The notes under the pieces are model-generated. The model saw only the letters and a program-made list of their open reading frames with translations. It searched no databases and was not told the origin of the DNA. Below, piece after piece: positions 1,168 to 7,758 of a stretch of DNA of 64,000 bases. Position 1 is the stretch's first letter, and the number at the start of each line of letters is the position of its first letter. The stretch is from contig CAWAPJ010000001.1 in the NCBI GenBank assembly GCA_963783885.1, positions 96,001 to 160,000 on the forward strand, read 5' to 3'. This DNA is from Waddliaceae bacterium (GTDB lineage Bacteria; Chlamydiota; Chlamydiia; Chlamydiales; SLFE01). Position numbers and translations under genes: made by a program.

Positions 1168-2721
1168 ATGATGATGAGATCAAAAATTCTATTAACTTTT
1201 CTGACATTTGTCAGCTTGGCATCTCAGGTACAGGGGTATATGAATCCCGATCCAAACCATATCACAATTATAGATAATGGAAGAGTCATCGAGATGACTC
1301 CTAACGGATTTGACACTAATCAACCTTCCCAAGACACAATCAACCTTCAATGGGTGTTCGATACTTTTCCAAATGGCGATATCAGTCTAAGTGCCGGCAC
1401 ATTCCACATCAGCACCATGATTGAAGCCGTTAACTATCAAGGAAAAATTGAAGGAGCAGGGAAAGACTCCACTTTTCTCGTGGGACGAGGACCTCTTGTC
1501 GATGGAGATTATGTTTTTCCAGAACTCAATCAGGATTTTAAAACCAGACTCTACCCATCAGGCGTTCCCCATTTGATTTGGTTTCACCCATCGCAAGGGG
1601 CTGCCAATGATTGGGTTACAAATAAAGTGGATTTAGAAATCAAGGATTTGACAATTCGTCTGGATGGAGTCGGTCCCGCCATCACTTATTTTGGCGTTCC
1701 GGTAAGATCCATTTGGTCTCTTCTCATTATCACAGGAAGCAATGCCGTTATTACAGAGGCTTCCGGCAACGTTTCTCATGTTGACTTGGAGCTGAAAGAT
1801 GTTAACTTACAGGCTCAGGAAGTTTCCTACACTCTCAATGGAAACAATTTAAGCAATCCAAATGCTGCTGCCGGGGTACTTCTTTATGGAGGAGAAAACT
1901 GGGTCCCTTCAATTGGGTTGAATGGATATACTGAAATTGATCATGGGCCTGTCAATGCTGTAGTCGACATTCGCGATTGCACTTTCGACCTCTTCCACCA
2001 ATTCGCTATTGGAGTCGAGGCAACTTATACAACGAATCCGGGAACAGGATATACCTTCCCCGATAATCCCGTATTCCCCCCATCGGCTGTTTCAATCAGG
2101 GATAATACATTTAATGGAGTGGGCAGCAGCCTCGGAATTCCGGGATCATTCGGATTTAATACACTCGTCCTGTCCCCAAGCGAAACTACTATCACAATCA
2201 AAGACAATATATTAAATGACGTTGTGTCAAGCGGGATTGGTTTTTTGAGAGGAGTTGCTATTACGATTCCTGAACTCACCTCATTTGCTACAATTAAGGA
2301 TAATACAATCAACATGGTAGCCAACCCATTAAATGGAGCCGGCATCCGCTTGTTCGATTTCTCCTTTTTTGCTGGCACGCCGCTCATTGTATATGCGCAA
2401 GATAACATTCTAACGGGAGGCACCGGATATAATAAACCTCTGATTGAACATGCTATGGGTACTGCGGCAACCTTTGACGATAATAAGTTCTTCGGAGAAG
2501 CCCAATCGGGAATTTCGGCAGGGAATACGATTTCACCTCTGCCGCCAACTATTCCACTTCCCGTTGTTCAAGATACTATCTTCGACAATGATTTTGGCAA
2601 CTTGACTTCTTCAATTGCCAATATCATACTAGGGCCGGCATCCTCATACAATACAGTAACGGTTGAGAATGCCAGCGATGTTCTAAACCAGGGAGTCGGC
2701 AATACAGTTATTGTAGAGTAA
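1168..2721 (+). CDS. Secreted protein with probable right-handed beta-helix (pectin lyase-like) fold
   Basis: N-terminal signal peptide; DTINLQWVFD...ISLSAGTFHI...IEGAGKDSTFL start-of-helix motif; repeated IxDNxF/I turns. Confidence 0.7.
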   Translation: MMMRSKILLTFLTFVSLASQVQGYMNPDPNHITIIDNGRVIEMTPNGFDTNQPSQDTINLQWVFDTFPNGDISLSAGTFHISTMIEAVNYQGKIEGAGKDSTFLVGRGPLVDGDYVFPELNQDFKTRLYPSGVPHLIWFHPSQGAANDWVTNKVDLEIKDLTIRLDGVGPAITYFGVPVRSIWSLLIITGSNAVITEASGNVSHVDLELKDVNLQAQEVSYTLNGNNLSNPNAAAGVLLYGGENWVPSIGLNGYTEIDHGPVNAVVDIRDCTFDLFHQFAIGVEATYTTNPGTGYTFPDNPVFPPSAVSIRDNTFNGVGSSLGIPGSFGFNTLVLSPSETTITIKDNILNDVVSSGIGFLRGVAITIPELTSFATIKDNTINMVANPLNGAGIRLFDFSFFAGTPLIVYAQDNILTGGTGYNKPLIEHAMGTAATFDDNKFFGEAQSGISAGNTISPLPPTIPLPVVQDTIFDNDFGNLTSSIANIILGPASSYNTVTVENASDVLNQGVGNTVIVE

Positions 2722-2739
2722 CACTCTACGGTAAACCAA

Positions 2740-2774
2740 GGGCCGGCCCCTCAGGGTCGGCCTAGTTTATTTTA
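2740..2774 (+). terminator. Intrinsic terminator hairpin
   Basis: ggccggccc-ctca-gggtcggcc followed by T-rich tagtttatttt. Confidence 0.65.
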
Positions 2775-2865
2775 AAGGTCCGGCCAACACTGATCGTAGG
2801 AAAAGTCAAATTCATCTTCAAAACCGAGTCCGCGTTCCATCTTGAGTCTAAATCGCTTTCCTAAG

Positions 2866-3908
2866 ACCCTGATTGCTACCTAAACTTGTCGTTAAGGTCT
2901 TTCATTGAATTCAGATGCGTAGACTCGATTTGAAGGCAAGGGTAATCCTTTGCCGATAATCGAGGCTTAGCAGATGGATTCAATGAAAGATTTTAACGGC
3001 AATAGACTCATGTGATAATTCCTTAACCAAAAAAAGGAGTACATCATGGAAACTTATGCAATAACCGTTGATGTCATCAGCGAAGAAGTCCTTCGAATTT
3101 TAGGGGTTAAAGACGATCCTCAATCTCAAATGTCCAATGCAGAAGTTATAACTTTTGCAATTTTATCAGCAAAATATTTTTCTTGTAACTATAAAATATC
3201 CAGATATTTATGTAAGAGATTGCGATTATTCACAACTATTTTAAGCAATAGCCGACTTAACCGTTGAATCCATAAAATTCCCTGGACTTGTTGGAACGCT
3301 ATTTTCCGTTTTTTAGCTTTATTTTTTAAACAAATAAATAAAGATCAAGGTTTTGCTATAGATAGCTTTCCAGTTTCTTGCTGCCAGAAAAATAGAATCG
3401 ATAAACGGAAGATCTTTCTAGAGCGAAGGTTTTTTGGTTACGCAGCTTCTAAAAAGCGTTATTTTTGTGGCATAAAAGTTCATATGATTGTGACGAGTGA
3501 AGGCGAGCCGGTTGAAGTTCTTTTCAAGCCAGGAGCAGTAAGCGATGTAAAGGTACTCTGGGAGATGGAGTTGGACATACCGCCAGATTCTAAACTCTTA
3601 AGCAGATGGCGCCTATAATTGTTTTGATCTAGAGGACATCTTGCATGAAGAACAAATTACATTGCTTGCAAAACGGGGATGCAGAACGAAAAAACGGGTC
3701 CGAACACCTATTGAAGAGAGGGAAATCAGTAGCAAGCGACAAATTGTCGAAACGACGTTTAGCTGTATAACAAATCTTTTTCCTAGAACTTTTAAGGTCT
3801 GCACTGAACAAGGCTTTTTGATAAAAGTATTCTGTACAATTCTAGCCTATAGCGTTTCATTTTTATGCAATAGTAAGCTCTAGCTGAGGTTTAGGTAGCA
3901 ATCAGGGT
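2866..3908 (+). mobile_element. IS982-family element, copy 1 (defective)
   Basis: TIRs ACCCTGATTGCTACCTAAAC / GTTTAGGTAGCAATCAGGGT; 5-bp TSD CTAAG (2861-2865, 3909-3913). Confidence 0.92.
3046..3883 (+). pseudogene. IS982 transposase pseudogene
   Basis: Closely similar to 24118-24957 but has a TGA at 3265-3267 and a 1-nt insertion near 3598. Confidence 0.9.
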
Positions 3909-4079
3909 CTAAGGCAGCTCTATTACTTATTTGAGTCATATCTTCATCAGAAAGGTCAAAATCAAAAACATTGAAATTATCAGCAATGTGGCTTGGATTA
4001 GAACGGCTTTGTTCTCTAATCGCGCCGTTTTTAGTCAAACATTTTCTCTTCTCCATAAAGAATTTTGAAAAAAGTCTCT

Positions 4080-4240
4080 TTTATCGCCATAACACACTCC
4101 CTTGGTTCTCTCCGGGATCTACTTTGGAGAGCGGTTTTCTCTGCTCTCGTCCCAATATATTTTTCGAAATAAATCAGGGCAGGCTATGTTGCGTGCGGAG
4201 TCTAAAGCTCCAAACAAGGCCGCGCCTTGACCTGATTCAA
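4080..4240 (-). ncRNA. Predicted bridge/seek RNA of the IS110 element (target- and donor-binding loops); exact ends unknown
   Basis: Minus strand: stem-GGCCTTGTT-hairpin-ACGCAACA-stem matches the target; AAATATATT-hairpin-AGAGAAC matches the donor junction. Confidence 0.75.
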
Positions 4241-4299
4241 ATCGGTATGTGTTTCTGGCTTAAAAATTAACTTCTCTCCACCATTTATTCTGGCTTCAA

Positions 4300-4366
4300 G
4301 CTCTGCTTTCCTCTTTTTTCGGCCTCTCACCCGGACTTGAAGGCCGAAAAAAGAGGAAAGCAGAGC
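4300..4366. repeat. Perfect 26-bp inverted repeat right after the IS110 transposase stop codon
   Basis: gctctgctttcctcttttttcggcct / aggccgaaaaaagaggaaagcagagc with a 15-nt loop. Confidence 0.9.
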
Positions 4367-4375
4367 GGGGTAAAT

Positions 4376-5434
4376 TTAAGCTGCTACCGGTTCCTTTTTT
4401 ATACTCTCTTCCTTGCTGTCTCCGTACCGGAAGGGTTCGCGTTTCAAAAGCATCGCATGCATGATGACAGCCAGCTTCCTGCCGAGGGCAACTGTCGCCT
4501 TTTTGAAGCCCTTTTTTCTTTGAAGTTTCAACGCCCATGCCTTAGGTTTACACCAACTTCTAGTTCGGCTTAGCATCACAACTGCCGACTCCACTAACAA
4601 CGACCTGGTTTGTCTAGATCCGCACTTTGACACACGACCTAATCTTTGGGTCTCTCCTGAGGAGTACTGCCTTGGTGTTAGCCCCAAAAATGCAGCGACG
4701 TTCTTCGAGTTTTTGAAGCGGGTGTAATCACCAATCGCCACGAGATAGCTCAAGGACGTTAAAACCCCGATACCAGGAATTGTCATCAGCAGTTGGACAT
4801 CGGCGTTGTCTCGAGCTATCGACGAGATCTGTTTCTCGAGGTTGGTTATTTGTTCGGTTAAACATTCATATCCCTTTAAAAGTGCTTCGATAGCTGCTTG
4901 TACGGAGCTTATTTGATCTTGGATGCACTCCCGAACCAGCTTGATAAACAACAACTTTCCGGTTGTAGAAACAGTTAGTCCATAAGCTTTTAAAAAACCG
5001 CGAATTGCATTTTTTAGCTTTGTGCGCTCTTGAACCAGGGTGCTCCTTGACTGAAGGAGAACGCCTGTATCGACAAGCTCTTGGTTTTTGACGAACACCT
5101 CTTTGTAAAAGCCTCCTCGCATGGCATTAGCTATTCCCCGCGCATCATTGGTATCTGTCTTGTTGATGTTCATGGACAGAATCGAGGACATATGTCTTGC
5201 ATCCACGCATAGGACTGGGAGGCCGAGCTTTCTTAGCTCAGTAACCAACCAGTGGCTTAGGGAGCCTGTTTCAATCCCAATCTTATCGAGCTGAACCCCG
5301 GTTTTCAAAAGCTTCCGTTGGATTGATGAGGGGTCTGTTTTGGTATGTCCTTCATACACTACCTCTCCTTGGTGGTCTACGACACAAATAAAAGTCTCTT
5401 TCAAAGATACGTCTAATCCTACATAATGGTTCAT
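4376..5434 (-). CDS. IS110-family transposase/recombinase (DEDD)
   Basis: YVGLDVS, IGIETG, NKTDTNDA, IPGIG, GLTPRQYSSG (catalytic Ser), SKCGS, VALGRKLAVIMHAML. Confidence 0.96.
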   Translation of the reverse strand: MNHYVGLDVSLKETFICVVDHQGEVVYEGHTKTDPSSIQRKLLKTGVQLDKIGIETGSLSHWLVTELRKLGLPVLCVDARHMSSILSMNINKTDTNDARGIANAMRGGFYKEVFVKNQELVDTGVLLQSRSTLVQERTKLKNAIRGFLKAYGLTVSTTGKLLFIKLVRECIQDQISSVQAAIEALLKGYECLTEQITNLEKQISSIARDNADVQLLMTIPGIGVLTSLSYLVAIGDYTRFKNSKNVAAFLGLTPRQYSSGETQRLGRVSKCGSRQTRSLLVESAVVMLSRTRSWCKPKAWALKLQRKKGFKKATVALGRKLAVIMHAMLLKREPFRYGDSKEESIKKEPVAA

Positions 5435-5622
5435 GGCTGCTTCTCCTTTTTGGTTTTGGCCTTCGAGGCCGTGTTATTCCAATGGAGAGTTTATATAAAC
5501 TACTCCGCGGCGTTTTGCCAGAGAAGCAGCCTTTCGTTTAACTAAGCAGCGCGATTACAATATGTTGCGTAATTAACCACAGAGCTCACAAGAGCGCACA
5601 GAGAGAATATGAGAGATTTGAT

Positions 5623-6567
5623 TTAAGCTGCTATTAATTCACTTTCAGGCATTCCCAGCTTTGTCATTATATTTAGTGCTTCACATTTTGCCCTTGATTC
5701 AGCCCTTTGGGTTTCCAGAGTTCTACTTCTTAAATCATTTCCAAAGAATCGTTTAAATCTAAACATGGCTGTTTCTGCAAGTGATCGACGATGATAACCT
5801 TTCAACTTTTTCCATAATTTTCTTGCATCATCATCACCTCCTAAACCTGAAATTTCCAGCAAACTGATATTCCGCATCTTCCAAGAAGGAGATATGTTTT
5901 CTCGAAAAACAGCATTCCTATTGGGTGGAATAATAGGAATTGAGCCGTGAACTACATTTGCAGCATAGCATCGCTTAGTATCATAAGCCCCATCTCCATA
6001 TGTGCGCTTAACTGATTTCGGCATTACCTCGAGAAGTTTTGGATACACTTCACAATCTGCAACGTTATTTTCAGTAAGAATTTCGAAAATAATTTCGTGA
6101 GAGTCAGGGCAGACTGCCAGATGGAGCTTTCTCCATGTTCGCCTTTTACTGATTCCATGCTGCCTAACTTTCCATTCACCCTCTCCGTACACTTTCAAAC
6201 CGGTTGAATCGATTACAATATTGGTGACTTTTTTTTTCGAAAGTTTCTTCAACTCTTGCCCCAACAACTTAGCTCTCCGACAAATTTGAGTATAAGAAGG
6301 AATCGATAAACCAACAGATAAAATCATAACAAGAGATGTCAAAAATCCTTCGAGTGCTCTCAATGGAAGATGAAAAACCGATCGAATAATGAGCGCGGTG
6401 AGAATAGCGTCATCAGAATAGAGTTTTGGACGCCCCTTTTTTCCTATTTCTTTTGGAGCCATCCACTTATTGATAGCATCTTCAGAAAACCAAACAGTTA
6501 TGCTTCCCCTTTGAATAAGAGATTTGTTATAGTCGTTCCAGTTGCGAATGCGATATTTTGCCTTCAT
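5623..6567 (-). CDS. IS5-family transposase, IS903 subgroup
   Basis: NWNDYNKSLIQRGSITVW, IDSTGLKVYGEGEWKVRQHG, RRTWRKLHLAV, GDGAYDT, GYHRRSLAETAMFRFK. Confidence 0.95.
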   Translation of the reverse strand: MKAKYRIRNWNDYNKSLIQRGSITVWFSEDAINKWMAPKEIGKKGRPKLYSDDAILTALIIRSVFHLPLRALEGFLTSLVMILSVGLSIPSYTQICRRAKLLGQELKKLSKKKVTNIVIDSTGLKVYGEGEWKVRQHGISKRRTWRKLHLAVCPDSHEIIFEILTENNVADCEVYPKLLEVMPKSVKRTYGDGAYDTKRCYAANVVHGSIPIIPPNRNAVFRENISPSWKMRNISLLEISGLGGDDDARKLWKKLKGYHRRSLAETAMFRFKRFFGNDLRSRTLETQRAESRAKCEALNIMTKLGMPESELIAA

Positions 6568-6651
6568 CTTGATCCTCCAATTTGTTGCAACTAAAAATTA
6601 GAGTATTAGGTATTTGTCGGCAAGCTCGCATTCGCCCTTTTTGGAGAAAAG

Positions 6652-7059
6652 ATGACTAGTACCCACACAACTGAAGAAGCCAACCAAAAAAGAAATGACC
6701 TTTTAACAGGGGAAATCATAGGTGCTGCGATTGAAGTTCATCGAAGATTAGGTCCAGGCTTGCTTGAATCGACATACGAAACTTGTCTTTGCTACGAGTT
6801 GAACCTTGCGGGTTTGAAAGTTAACCGGCAGATACCAGTACCTATTATTTATCGTGATAAAAAGCTAGACTCAGGCTACCGGATCGATATGATAGTGGAA
6901 GATAAGGTTATTTTGGAGATAAAATCTGTGGCCAATCTCTTGCCTGTTCATGAGGCCCAACTTCTATCCTATCTTAAGCATAATGGCGGTGGCAGAGGTT
7001 TGCTCATCAATTTCAATGTAAAACTTCTAAAAAATGGGATTAGGCGTCTAATCATTTAA
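6652..7059 (+). CDS. GxxExxY protein (PD-(D/E)XK nuclease-like)
   Basis: IGAAIEVHRRLGPGLLESTYE, YRIDMIVEDKVILEIKS, HEAQLLSYL, GLLINF. Confidence 0.92.
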   Translation: MTSTHTTEEANQKRNDLLTGEIIGAAIEVHRRLGPGLLESTYETCLCYELNLAGLKVNRQIPVPIIYRDKKLDSGYRIDMIVEDKVILEIKSVANLLPVHEAQLLSYLKHNGGGRGLLINFNVKLLKNGIRRLII

Positions 7060-7758
7060 TTCCTCTCTCATAATCTCTCAGTGAGCTCGGTGGTCTCAGT
7101 GGTGATTTATGCAACAACGCCGATTAGAACTGCCGGGCAAGGGAATAACCTCTTTTTGAATGATCCAGCGCAATGCAACCTGCCCGGAGCTTTTGCCATA
7201 TTTCTTGCCAATTTCAACAAGCCCCGCATCATTAGCAAGTTTTCCCCGATTTAGTGGCCTCCATGCTTGTATTTTAATCTTATTTCTTTGGCAGAAAGAG
7301 ATTAAACTGTCATCGCAATAGTCGGGATGCATTTCATTCTGAACCCATGATATGGGAACACCCACATCAAAAGCTCGTCGAAGATGGTTGATTGTCACGT
7401 TGCTCATTCCGATTTCGCGAACTTTACCTTCTCTTTGTAATTTCTCCATTGTTGTGAGAGTTTCGGTAACGCTAGTTTGACTGTTCGGCCAAAGGTAATT
7501 GGTGATTTCTGAATAAGGTCATTTCCCAGATGTTATGGTGTTCATGATGACTCCTTTAGAAAAAAGAAAATTCTAAACACTCAACTTAAATTGGTCAATT
7601 TATTCGTCGATTTAGAAAGGGAGCCTGGGCAGTATTTCTTACCAGATCTCGAGGCAAGCTGGGCAGGATGTTGCTTCAGATTTGTTTTTAAATGCCCTCT
7701 GGCATTGTCTGATCGATAAGACGAGGGCATTTGAGGACGAAGATGGAGTGACAAACTG

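Follow-up and report, generated by a model that had tools for sequence, protein, structure and literature searches.

The 64,000-nucleotide (nt) stretch of contig CAWAPJ010000001.1 from a Waddliaceae bacterium, here called the window, carries near its beginning an insertion sequence (IS) of the IS1111 type, which belongs to the IS110 family. The element is inserted into a terminal inverted repeat (TIR) of another insertion sequence, which belongs to the IS903 group and is referred to below as the host IS. The region downstream of the IS1111-type transposase gene is predicted to encode a guide RNA of the kind known as seekRNA or bridge RNA. It is very likely that this RNA guides the transposase to the TIR of IS903-group elements and that a second loop of the same RNA, the donor loop, reads the joined ends of the element itself. 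An RNA-guided recombinase aimed at transposon ends had been put forward for this locus in the original prediction, and this proposal is supported by a covarying RNA structure and by the covariation of guides with flanking sequences in related elements. The DNA features of the locus are listed below.

4014-5566, minus strand: intact IS1111-type (IS110 family) insertion sequence of 1553 base pairs (bp), delimited with the help of empty sites, a second copy and a metagenome contig
4376-5434, minus strand: intact transposase gene of 352 amino acids (aa), with a DEDD (RuvC-like) domain and the C-terminal sequence GLTPRQYSSG
4017-4030: right sub-terminal inverted repeat, which pairs with 5544-5557; relatives have such repeats of 12-14 nt
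5544-5557: left sub-terminal inverted repeat, which pairs with 4017-4030
4300-4366: perfect 26-bp hairpin with a 15-nt loop, between the stop codon of the transposase gene and the RNA
4005-4013, plus strand: outer 9 nt (GGCTTTGTT) of the interrupted TIR of the host IS
5567-7121, minus strand: rest of the 1564-bp IS903-group element, with its transposase gene at 5623-6567 (minus strand) and a passenger open reading frame (ORF) at 6652-7059 (plus strand)
3996-4004 and 7122-7130: 9-bp target duplication GATTAGAAC of the host IS

The element at 4014-5566 belongs to the IS1111 type of the IS110 family, is intact and has a DEDD recombinase as its transposase. The translation of 4376-5434 shows no interruption and contains the domain pair of the IS110 family (PF01548, E 4e-20; PF02371, E 9e-25). 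It scores 270 bits against the NCBIfam model NF033542, "IS110 family RNA-guided transposase", the cut-off of which is 140 bits, and its C-terminal half matches the IS621 transposase (PDB 8wt6 chain A, E 2.6e-16). The C-terminal motif of IS1111-type transposases is given as GL-P----S(t)G (Siddiquee et al. 2024, PMC11187229), and GLTPRQYSSG conforms to it. The sub-terminal inverted repeats at 4017-4030 and 5544-5557 are 14 nt long, match at 86% and share a perfect 9-nt core, TAATCGCGC. In the IS1111 group, such repeats are described as usually 11-13 bp long and as followed by short asymmetric terminal extensions; in the window element the extension from the 9-nt repeat core to the boundaries given above is 3 nt at the right end and 9 nt at the left end, within an ambiguity of 4 nt. 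This ambiguity comes from the sequence TGTT, which is present at both junctions. The insert is placed at 4014-5566 because the TIR of the host IS breaks off behind GGCTTTGTT (4005-4013) and continues from 5567 onwards. The non-coding region downstream of the transposase gene (4014-4375, 362 nt) is far longer than that upstream of it (5435-5566, 132 nt), which is also a feature of the IS1111 group. The same applies to the mode of insertion, which is specific for site and orientation and proceeds without target duplication. The junctions share only the core of 2-4 nt, and all six right-end junctions in the genome come after GGCYTTGTT in the same orientation. A second full copy of the element (G000:C19:1950-3502) is 99.9% identical and differs at one of the 1553 positions. 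This copy, called the C19 copy below, occupies the TIR of another IS903-like element with a frameshifted transposase of 48% identity, and it is flanked by GGCCTTGTT on one side and GCGTAAGTTC on the other.

The target had been taken in the original prediction for the TIR of an IS903-group element, and this assignment holds. The gene at 5623-6567 on the minus strand encodes an IS5-family transposase of the DDE type (PF13737 and PF01609; NF033579, 289 bits) that is 46% identical to the IS903B-family transposases. The 1564-bp element is present in nine full copies in the genome, and eight of these, the window's copy among them, are surrounded by a 9-bp duplication. The TIRs start with GGC.TTGTTG, and IS903 itself starts with GGCTTTGTTG. 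In eight of the nine full copies GGCTTTGTT runs without interruption into GCGTAATTAACC at the end distal to the start of the transposase, so that the eight other copies retain the empty site, GGCTTTGTT followed directly by GCGTAATT. Insertion of the IS1111-type element removes the outer 9 nt of the TIR from the host IS, which should disable that end. The passenger ORF of the host IS (6652-7059, plus strand, 135 aa) lies between the start of its transposase gene and the TIR. Its product is a GxxExxY protein of the PD-(D/E)XK nuclease superfamily (PF13366, E 8e-42; TIGR04256, E 1e-43), and it is present in all nine full 1.56-kb copies.

The predicted RNA is made up of a target loop followed by a donor loop, each of which holds two guide segments. 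The term core is used below for the dinucleotide at which the strands would be exchanged; it reads AC in the orientation of the transposase gene. The segments of the RNA, all on the minus strand, are the following.

About 4085-4250: predicted seek/bridge RNA, target loop then donor loop; the ends are approximate and are taken from the fold, the alignment of relatives (A1, see below) and the consensus structure
4213-4221: 5' target guide GGCCUUGUU (DNA GGCCTTGTT, 4221-4213)
4185-4194: 3' target guide ACGCAACA(UA), with the exact 8-mer at 4194-4187
4197-4211: inner target-loop hairpin GGAG ... CUCC, with compensatory changes in 3 of 3 pairs
4172-4237: outer target-loop stem, 4237-4224 with 4184-4172 and one bulged A, with compensatory changes in 8 of 9 pairs
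4154-4162: 5' donor guide AAAUAUAUU (DNA AAATATATT, 4162-4154), matching the complement of core plus left end at 7 of 9 positions
4105-4111: 3' donor guide AGAGAAC, identical to right end plus core
4113-4154: inner donor-loop stem UGGGAC / GAUCCCG with an apical hairpin
4148-4143 with 4132-4127: apical hairpin GAGAGC/GCUCUC, which in relatives has another sequence with the pairing kept

All four guide segments lie at the minus-strand positions at which they had been predicted. The inner hairpin separates the two target guides, and the outer stem encloses them. The 5' target guide GGCCUUGUU can pair with one strand of the target over the core and the right flank; in the orientation of the transposase gene the strand it pairs with is AACAAGGCC, which consists of the base before the core, the core AC and the right flank. 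The 3' target guide ACGCAACA is complementary to the other strand over the left flank and the core. Its sequence is that of the left flank, the core and the beginning of the element's left end, and the guide therefore pairs with the opposite strand. Together the two target guides spell the outer 13 nt of the IS903-group TIR, GGC(C/T)TTGTTGCGT, and the element is inserted exactly at the TIR site that they specify, in one orientation and without duplication. As had been claimed, the first guide fits the target at 8 of 9 positions and the second one is exact. The fit of the 5' target guide is better still at the C19 copy, the flank of which it matches at 9 of 9 positions; the guide thus fits the GGCCTTGTT variant of the TIR best, and the single C:A mismatch at the window site is tolerated. 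Both target guides are the longest matches to the target found anywhere in the 362-nt downstream region. As a control for chance, the non-coding region was shuffled 5000 times with its mononucleotide composition preserved. A match of this quality to GGCTTTGTT (8 of 9) was found in 127 of the shuffles and an exact ACGCAACA in 25, and none of the 5000 contained both. The donor-side matches are also present as claimed, 7 of 9 positions for the 5' donor guide and AGAGAAC for the 3' donor guide. By themselves they are weak: a match at 7 of 9 positions falls in A+T-rich sequence, and the 6-nt core AGAGAA of the 3' guide occurs four times in the region. The donor-side matches gain support only because of the comparison with relatives. 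A scan of 3950-5650 returned three promoter-like and four terminator-like sites, against 1.7 and 2.1 expected; in the same interval there was no promoter-like site before the RNA and no minus-strand terminator-like site after it.

Relatives of the transposase were collected by a protein search in 300 genomes of the same order, which detected the family in 27 genomes, G000 included. A scan of genome contigs added eight further loci, the closest of which is labelled uncultured Chlamydiales bacterium. Over the region downstream of the transposase gene, the window sequence was aligned with 20 non-identical relatives of that order (protein identities of 44-57%), and this alignment of 21 sequences is referred to as A1. 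The consensus fold of A1 contains four helices: the outer target-loop stem, the inner target-loop hairpin, a short closing stem of the donor loop and the inner donor-loop stem. Standard pairs occupy 93.2% of the 458 cells of the alignment that belong to these helices, compared with 78.5% in shuffles, and none of 500 shuffles reached the observed value. Changes on both sides were found in 14 of the 22 pairs. When the pairing partners are slid by 1-3 columns, pairing falls to 33-51%. The inner donor-loop stem is paired in 99.2% of its cells, with compensatory changes in three of its six pairs.

Covariation between guides and targets across homologs, which the original prediction had named as a check, was found. 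The ends of the relatives' elements were placed from their sub-terminal repeats and the guides were not used for this purpose. The variable part of each guide was then compared with the flanks of its own element and with those of the other elements, and the pairing of guides and flanks was permuted 20000 times. The 5' target guide matches its own flank at 4.47 of 6 positions on average and the flanks of others at 1.57 (n=17). For the 3' target guide the values are 4.36 and 1.40 of 5 positions (n=14). The 5' donor guide was compared with the left end of the element in the same way and gave 4.80 for its own end and 3.31 for others, out of 6 (n=15). In all three cases none of the 20000 permutations was as good. 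Poorly fitting rows were retained in these counts, namely L035, L036 and L041 as well as L021 and L033, which are shifted by one column. Perfect matches are found at very different sites, as in L018 (CGAGCG), L027 (TTAAAA), L030 (GGCTCT) and L034 (GAACGG). All 21 sequences of A1 have the same 3' donor guide, AGAGAAC, and all readable right ends finish with AGAG followed by AAC. In two alphaproteobacterial copies the sequence is AGAGAAG in the guide and in the right end alike. An alphaproteobacterial locus, L013 (CAVZLS010000020.1, a metagenome-assembled genome), has its element at about 1366-2816 and appears to be inserted in the guide-RNA gene of a related IS1111-type element. Its joined flanks resemble a donor loop of the L011 type and read ..GATCCCGAAG, AG, AAGCAAGG...

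The same set of loci bears on the position of the core. The right-end junction reads AAC in all 21 loci that could be read, and at the left-end junction the base before AC is other than A in 11 of 17 loci. Only AC is common to both junctions, and the core is therefore taken as AC, which corresponds to GT on the plus strand (4011-4012 and 5564-5565). The crossover dinucleotide is thus most likely GT on the plus strand, or AC in the orientation of the transposase, and the TT core that had been assumed before is rejected. The 5' target guide finishes with a constant U, which lies opposite the last base of the left flank and fits the right end of the element, not the target. The 3' target guide runs on into ..ACAU, the first bases of the left end. 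In our interpretation of these sequences, both target guides may fit the products of recombination as well as its substrates. This pattern recalls the hand-over pairing described for IS621. The 5' target guide nearly always ends in GUU, unlike the 5' donor guide, which in most relatives ends in AUU, AGU, GAU, GGU or AAU (A1 columns 112-114, window 4156-4154) and does not complement AC there. This difference may be a built-in asymmetry of the two loops.

The order of the guides follows the IS1111 group. Viewed in the orientation of the transposase gene, the bases right of the core are read on the top strand by the 5' guide, and those left of the core on the bottom strand by the 3' guide. The top-strand match thus lies 5' of the bottom-strand match and the two overlap in the target. 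Precisely this order is described for the seekRNAs of IS1111 elements, and it is the reverse of that in the IS110 type (Siddiquee et al. 2024, PMC11187229). The original prediction had likened the geometry to that of the IS621 bridge RNA. Its outline was right; the RNA, however, lies 3' of the transposase gene and its guides are in the reverse order, both in the window and in all aligned relatives.

Every GGCNTTGTT in the genome that is followed by a GCRTAA-like continuation or by the right end of the element was recorded, which gave 37 sites of three kinds.

TIR end GGCCTTGTT, perfect to the 5' guide: occupied or scarred at 3 of 4 sites
TIR end GGCTTTGTT, one mismatch: occupied or scarred at 3 of 17 sites
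TIR end GGCGTTGTT..GCAT, one mismatch in each guide: occupied or scarred at 0 of 16 sites

Occupancy in the genome tracks complementarity to the guides. The difference between perfect ends and the rest has a Fisher p of 0.0096, and that between GCGT/GCAC-type and GCAT-type ends a p of 0.027. The earlier remark that GCGT ends suit the right guide better than GCAT ends agrees with this distribution (6 of 21 against 0 of 16). Four of the six hits lack most of the element and consist of a right-end junction with 16-61 nt of element sequence behind it; they are located in IS903-like TIRs at G000:C12:21776-21798 (L007), C43:22999-23021, C10:82057-82079 (L006) and C19:4559-4628 (L005). At these solo junctions GGCYTTGTT precedes 16, 21, about 21 or about 39-61 nt of the right end. 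At C12 and C43 the TIR resumes straight after ..GTT, as if a deletion had taken place between an internal GT(T) and the core of the junction. The C43 scar contains the left-end version of the sub-terminal repeat and therefore comes from a variant element.

Metagenome data show the locus in other states. The stretch is contained wholly or partly in 20 of the 22 runs listed, with salt marsh, soil and mangrove as habitats. A contig from a soil metagenome (X2) joins 4009 to 5563 and skips exactly 1553 bases, with four ambiguous letters. It represents the empty form of the window locus because its other side is the unique left flank of this locus. Further contigs (runs X1 and X4) contain the right-end junction of the element preceded by flanks that are absent from this genome. 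Recent mobility of the element is supported by the two 99.9% identical copies, the empty site in X2 and the new flanks in X1 and X4. Salt-marsh contigs from runs X1, X3 and X4 carry a C at 4179 like the C19 copy, which turns the U.C mismatch of the window's target-loop stem into U.G; this position is the sole difference between the window copy and the C19 copy. No back-joint of a circular form was found in the contigs of four DNA runs, which cannot reveal rare forms. A TTGAC(T/A) box is conserved in relatives just inside the right sub-terminal repeat (window 4031-4036; left end 5558-5566). In a joined circle it would be separated from a -10-like, CATACT-like hexamer of the left end by 17 nt in relatives and by 21 nt in the window element. 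The junction promoter described for ISEc11 resembles this arrangement.

Based on these data, we propose the following route of insertion. The RNA of about 165 nt, encoded in the downstream region (about 4250-4085, minus strand), would function as the seekRNA or bridge RNA of the element. By analogy with ISEc11, ISKpn4, ISPa11 and IS621, the complex of recombinase and RNA would pair the target with one loop and the ends of the element with the second. The donor loop would read the joined ends of a circular form: AGAGAAC corresponds to right end plus core, and AAAUAUAUU corresponds in part to core plus left end. The junction of the circle would read ..GATTAGAGA-AC-ATATTGTAAT.., and the strands would be exchanged at the GT/AC core. 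The steps from the RNA to recombination are inferred from experiments on these four elements.

Several observations weigh against this reading or some part of it. A search of Rfam release 15 over 2500-6500, with E values up to 1, gave no match to a bridge or seek RNA family; it returned only sub-threshold matches (Phe leader and microRNA models), all to the unrelated hairpin at 4300-4366. The transcript, its ends and its binding by the transposase are predicted from the DNA, and no listed run that contains the sequence is an RNA run. The 5' donor guide matches at only 7 of 9 positions, its core is mismatched in most relatives and its pairing register is uncertain. Three relatives match the flanks of their own elements poorly, L035 at 2 of 6 and 2 of 5 positions, L036 at 1 of 6 and L041 at 1 of 6; the copies concerned may have decayed, or they may be misaligned or wrongly bounded. 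Because the relatives are kin and several of them share targets, independence is overstated by the permutation counts, and the guide-to-flank signal in the aligned loci is unambiguous despite this kinship. The joint in X2 has just 22 letters on its short side. Finally, the window copy may be less active, given the U.C at 4179 and the 21-nt spacing in the would-be junction promoter.

These observations have to be considered together with three other explanations of the locus. The matches could be due to chance or be remnants of the target at the DNA level, with the region holding no RNA gene or encoding instead a 99-aa protein from a plus-strand ORF at 3971-4270. This ORF does exist, and the lack of an Rfam family and of RNA among the runs agrees with such a view; the finding that none of the 5000 shuffles contains both guides, together with a fold and a guide covariation that hold over 21 sequences, makes it extremely improbable. 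The ORF at 3971-4270 was rejected as a gene, since its start lies outside the element, it runs across the element's end and Pfam gives no match. It is also conceivable, although unlikely, that the target loop is as described and the donor loop has been misread. The ends would in that case be recognized mainly by contacts of the protein with the repeats or by other nucleotides of the RNA, and the matches of AGAGAAC and AAAUAUAUU would be conserved for structure alone. The invariance of AGAGAAC in 21 sequences, which leaves no covariation within the order, is compatible with this, as is the partial 5' donor guide with its usually mismatched core. In addition, the protein domain that binds the IS ends is given as not known by Siddiquee et al. 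(2024, PMC11187229), and many IS1111 bridge RNAs place their donor-binding bases in a multi-loop and not in a simple internal loop according to Durrant et al. (2024, PMC11208160). Against a misread donor loop, the bases that vary in the 5' donor guide do so in step with the left end of their own element (AU with AT, GU with AC, UC with GA, UU with AA), at 4.80 of 6 positions against 3.31 for other elements; guide and right end have both changed to AGAGAAG in the alphaproteobacterial relatives; and the two donor segments face each other in one internal loop between conserved closing stems, like those of the target loop. The earlier assignment of the donor guides is retained for both segments, with the 5' one partial and often mismatched at the core.

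The window copy could further be an inactive relic, in which the RNA gene is still recognizable and movement is no longer supported. We regard this as unlikely. The U.C mismatch at 4179, where the C19 copy and three metagenome contigs have U.G, speaks for it, as do the 21-nt junction-promoter spacing and the 67-nt perfect hairpin between the gene and the RNA. No downstream region of a relative could be aligned to this hairpin (4300-4366) and no repeat of it was found elsewhere in the genome; it is not a typical terminator, as no U-run follows it on either strand. The number of full copies is also low, with just two compared with 31 intact candidate sites. The 352-aa frame, on the other hand, is intact and retains its catalytic motifs, the two copies differ at only one of 1553 positions, and metagenomes show both the empty form of the locus and further insertion contexts. 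An IS1111-type element whose downstream RNA directs it to IS903-group TIRs is the reading that we retain.

Insertion sequences are very abundant throughout the genome. A third IS-like element is located at 2860-3914, 81 nt from the IS903-group element. It is 1055 bp long, and its 26-bp TIRs are complementary at 96%. Over 30 related copies or fragments with about 90% identity are spread across the genome, and the reading frame of the window copy is split into short ORFs.

Targeting of IS5/IS903-type ends is not confined to the window element. The relative L017 (55% protein identity) has the guides GGCAUUGUU and UUUCAACA and is inserted in GGCATTGTTGAATAAGTC, and its host carries GGCATTGTTGAATAAG ends. 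The site is found 18 times in the genome of L017, compared with 0 for the reversed control, and lies beside IS5-type transposase genes at two of six fetched places. It follows that the targeting of IS5/IS903-type ends is common to at least two lineages, with guides adapted to their own hosts. The targets of L008 and L030 are not claimed as IS903-type TIRs: no IS5-type transposase was seen in the fetched flanks, and the sites are short palindromes. As a speculation that we consider quite unlikely to hold in full, the IS1111-type lineage in environmental chlamydiae might be a specialised parasite of IS903-group insertion sequences, with guides that track the resident TIR variants (GGCCUUGUU in the window, GGCAUUGUU in L017) and with hits and the 16-21-nt scars of imprecise loss that would permanently disable TIRs. 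If this were true, the element would in effect act as an RNA-guided brake on another family of transposons.

Publications of 2024 describe the mechanism and where the RNA lies, and the NCBI family model already names the protein an RNA-guided transposase. What is new here is this member of the group and its target; the mechanism is not new. No paper on an IS1111 element aimed at IS903 or IS5 ends was among those listed in literature searches, though the supplementary tables of PMC11187229 and PMC11208160 may list such elements. The locus offers a natural example, within one genome, of an empty site, a perfectly matched second copy and a graded occupancy of mismatched sites. It is accompanied by about twenty relatives that have been naturally reprogrammed to other targets while retaining one fold, for a mechanism of high biotechnological interest. 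This set could be of help in working out the rules that IS1111-type guide RNAs follow; these RNAs are not as well understood as that of IS621. Candidate rules are a likely AC/GT core, a constant U after the 5' target guide, a 3' target guide that continues into the left end and a frequent core mismatch in the donor loop.

Among known systems, the closest counterparts are the IS1111 elements with seekRNAs, ISEc11, ISKpn4, ISPst6 and ISPa11 (PMC11187229). As described there, these share with the window element a DEDD transposase of about 340-350 aa with the GL-P----SG motif, the sub-terminal repeats, the long non-coding region downstream of the gene and orientation-specific insertion without duplication. 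Their seekRNAs likewise contain two short guides for opposite target strands, which overlap at the insertion point and of which the top-strand match lies 5'. The window element, known from sequence alone, differs from them in its target, an IS903-group TIR, in the extra 26-bp hairpin and in its environmental host of an order labelled Chlamydiales. The IS621 bridge RNA (Durrant et al. 2024, PMC11208160; 8wt6) also has a target loop and a donor loop, with two guides per loop on opposite strands that overlap at a 2-nt core, and its recombinase belongs to a related family. It is located in the left end, upstream of the gene, whereas the window RNA lies in the right end with the reverse guide order and a probable AC core. 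A location in the right end agrees with the bridge RNA predictions for IS1111 elements, 93% of which place it there (Durrant et al. 2024, PMC11208160).

Insertion into other mobile elements has precedents as well. ISEc21, an RNA-guided insertion sequence of the IS110 type, has its natural target inside other insertion sequences; this target is a conserved coding region of IS3-family transposase genes and its RNA lies upstream (PMC11187229), while the window element targets a TIR and has its RNA downstream. The IS1111 elements IS4321 and IS5075 have been known since 2003 to reside in TIRs of the Tn21 family (Partridge and Hall 2003). Like the window element, they occupy one position in one orientation in the terminal inverted repeats of another transposon. 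Their targets are the Tn21-family (Tn3-type) TIRs on enterobacterial plasmids, whereas the window element targets an IS5-family TIR of the IS903 group. The window transposase is about 28% identical to those of IS4321 and IS5075, the named enterobacterial members with which it was compared, and because of this low identity the targeting of TIRs probably arose separately. With the window element, the range of mobile elements whose ends are targeted by IS1111 elements extends from Tn21-family transposons to IS5-family elements of the IS903 group.

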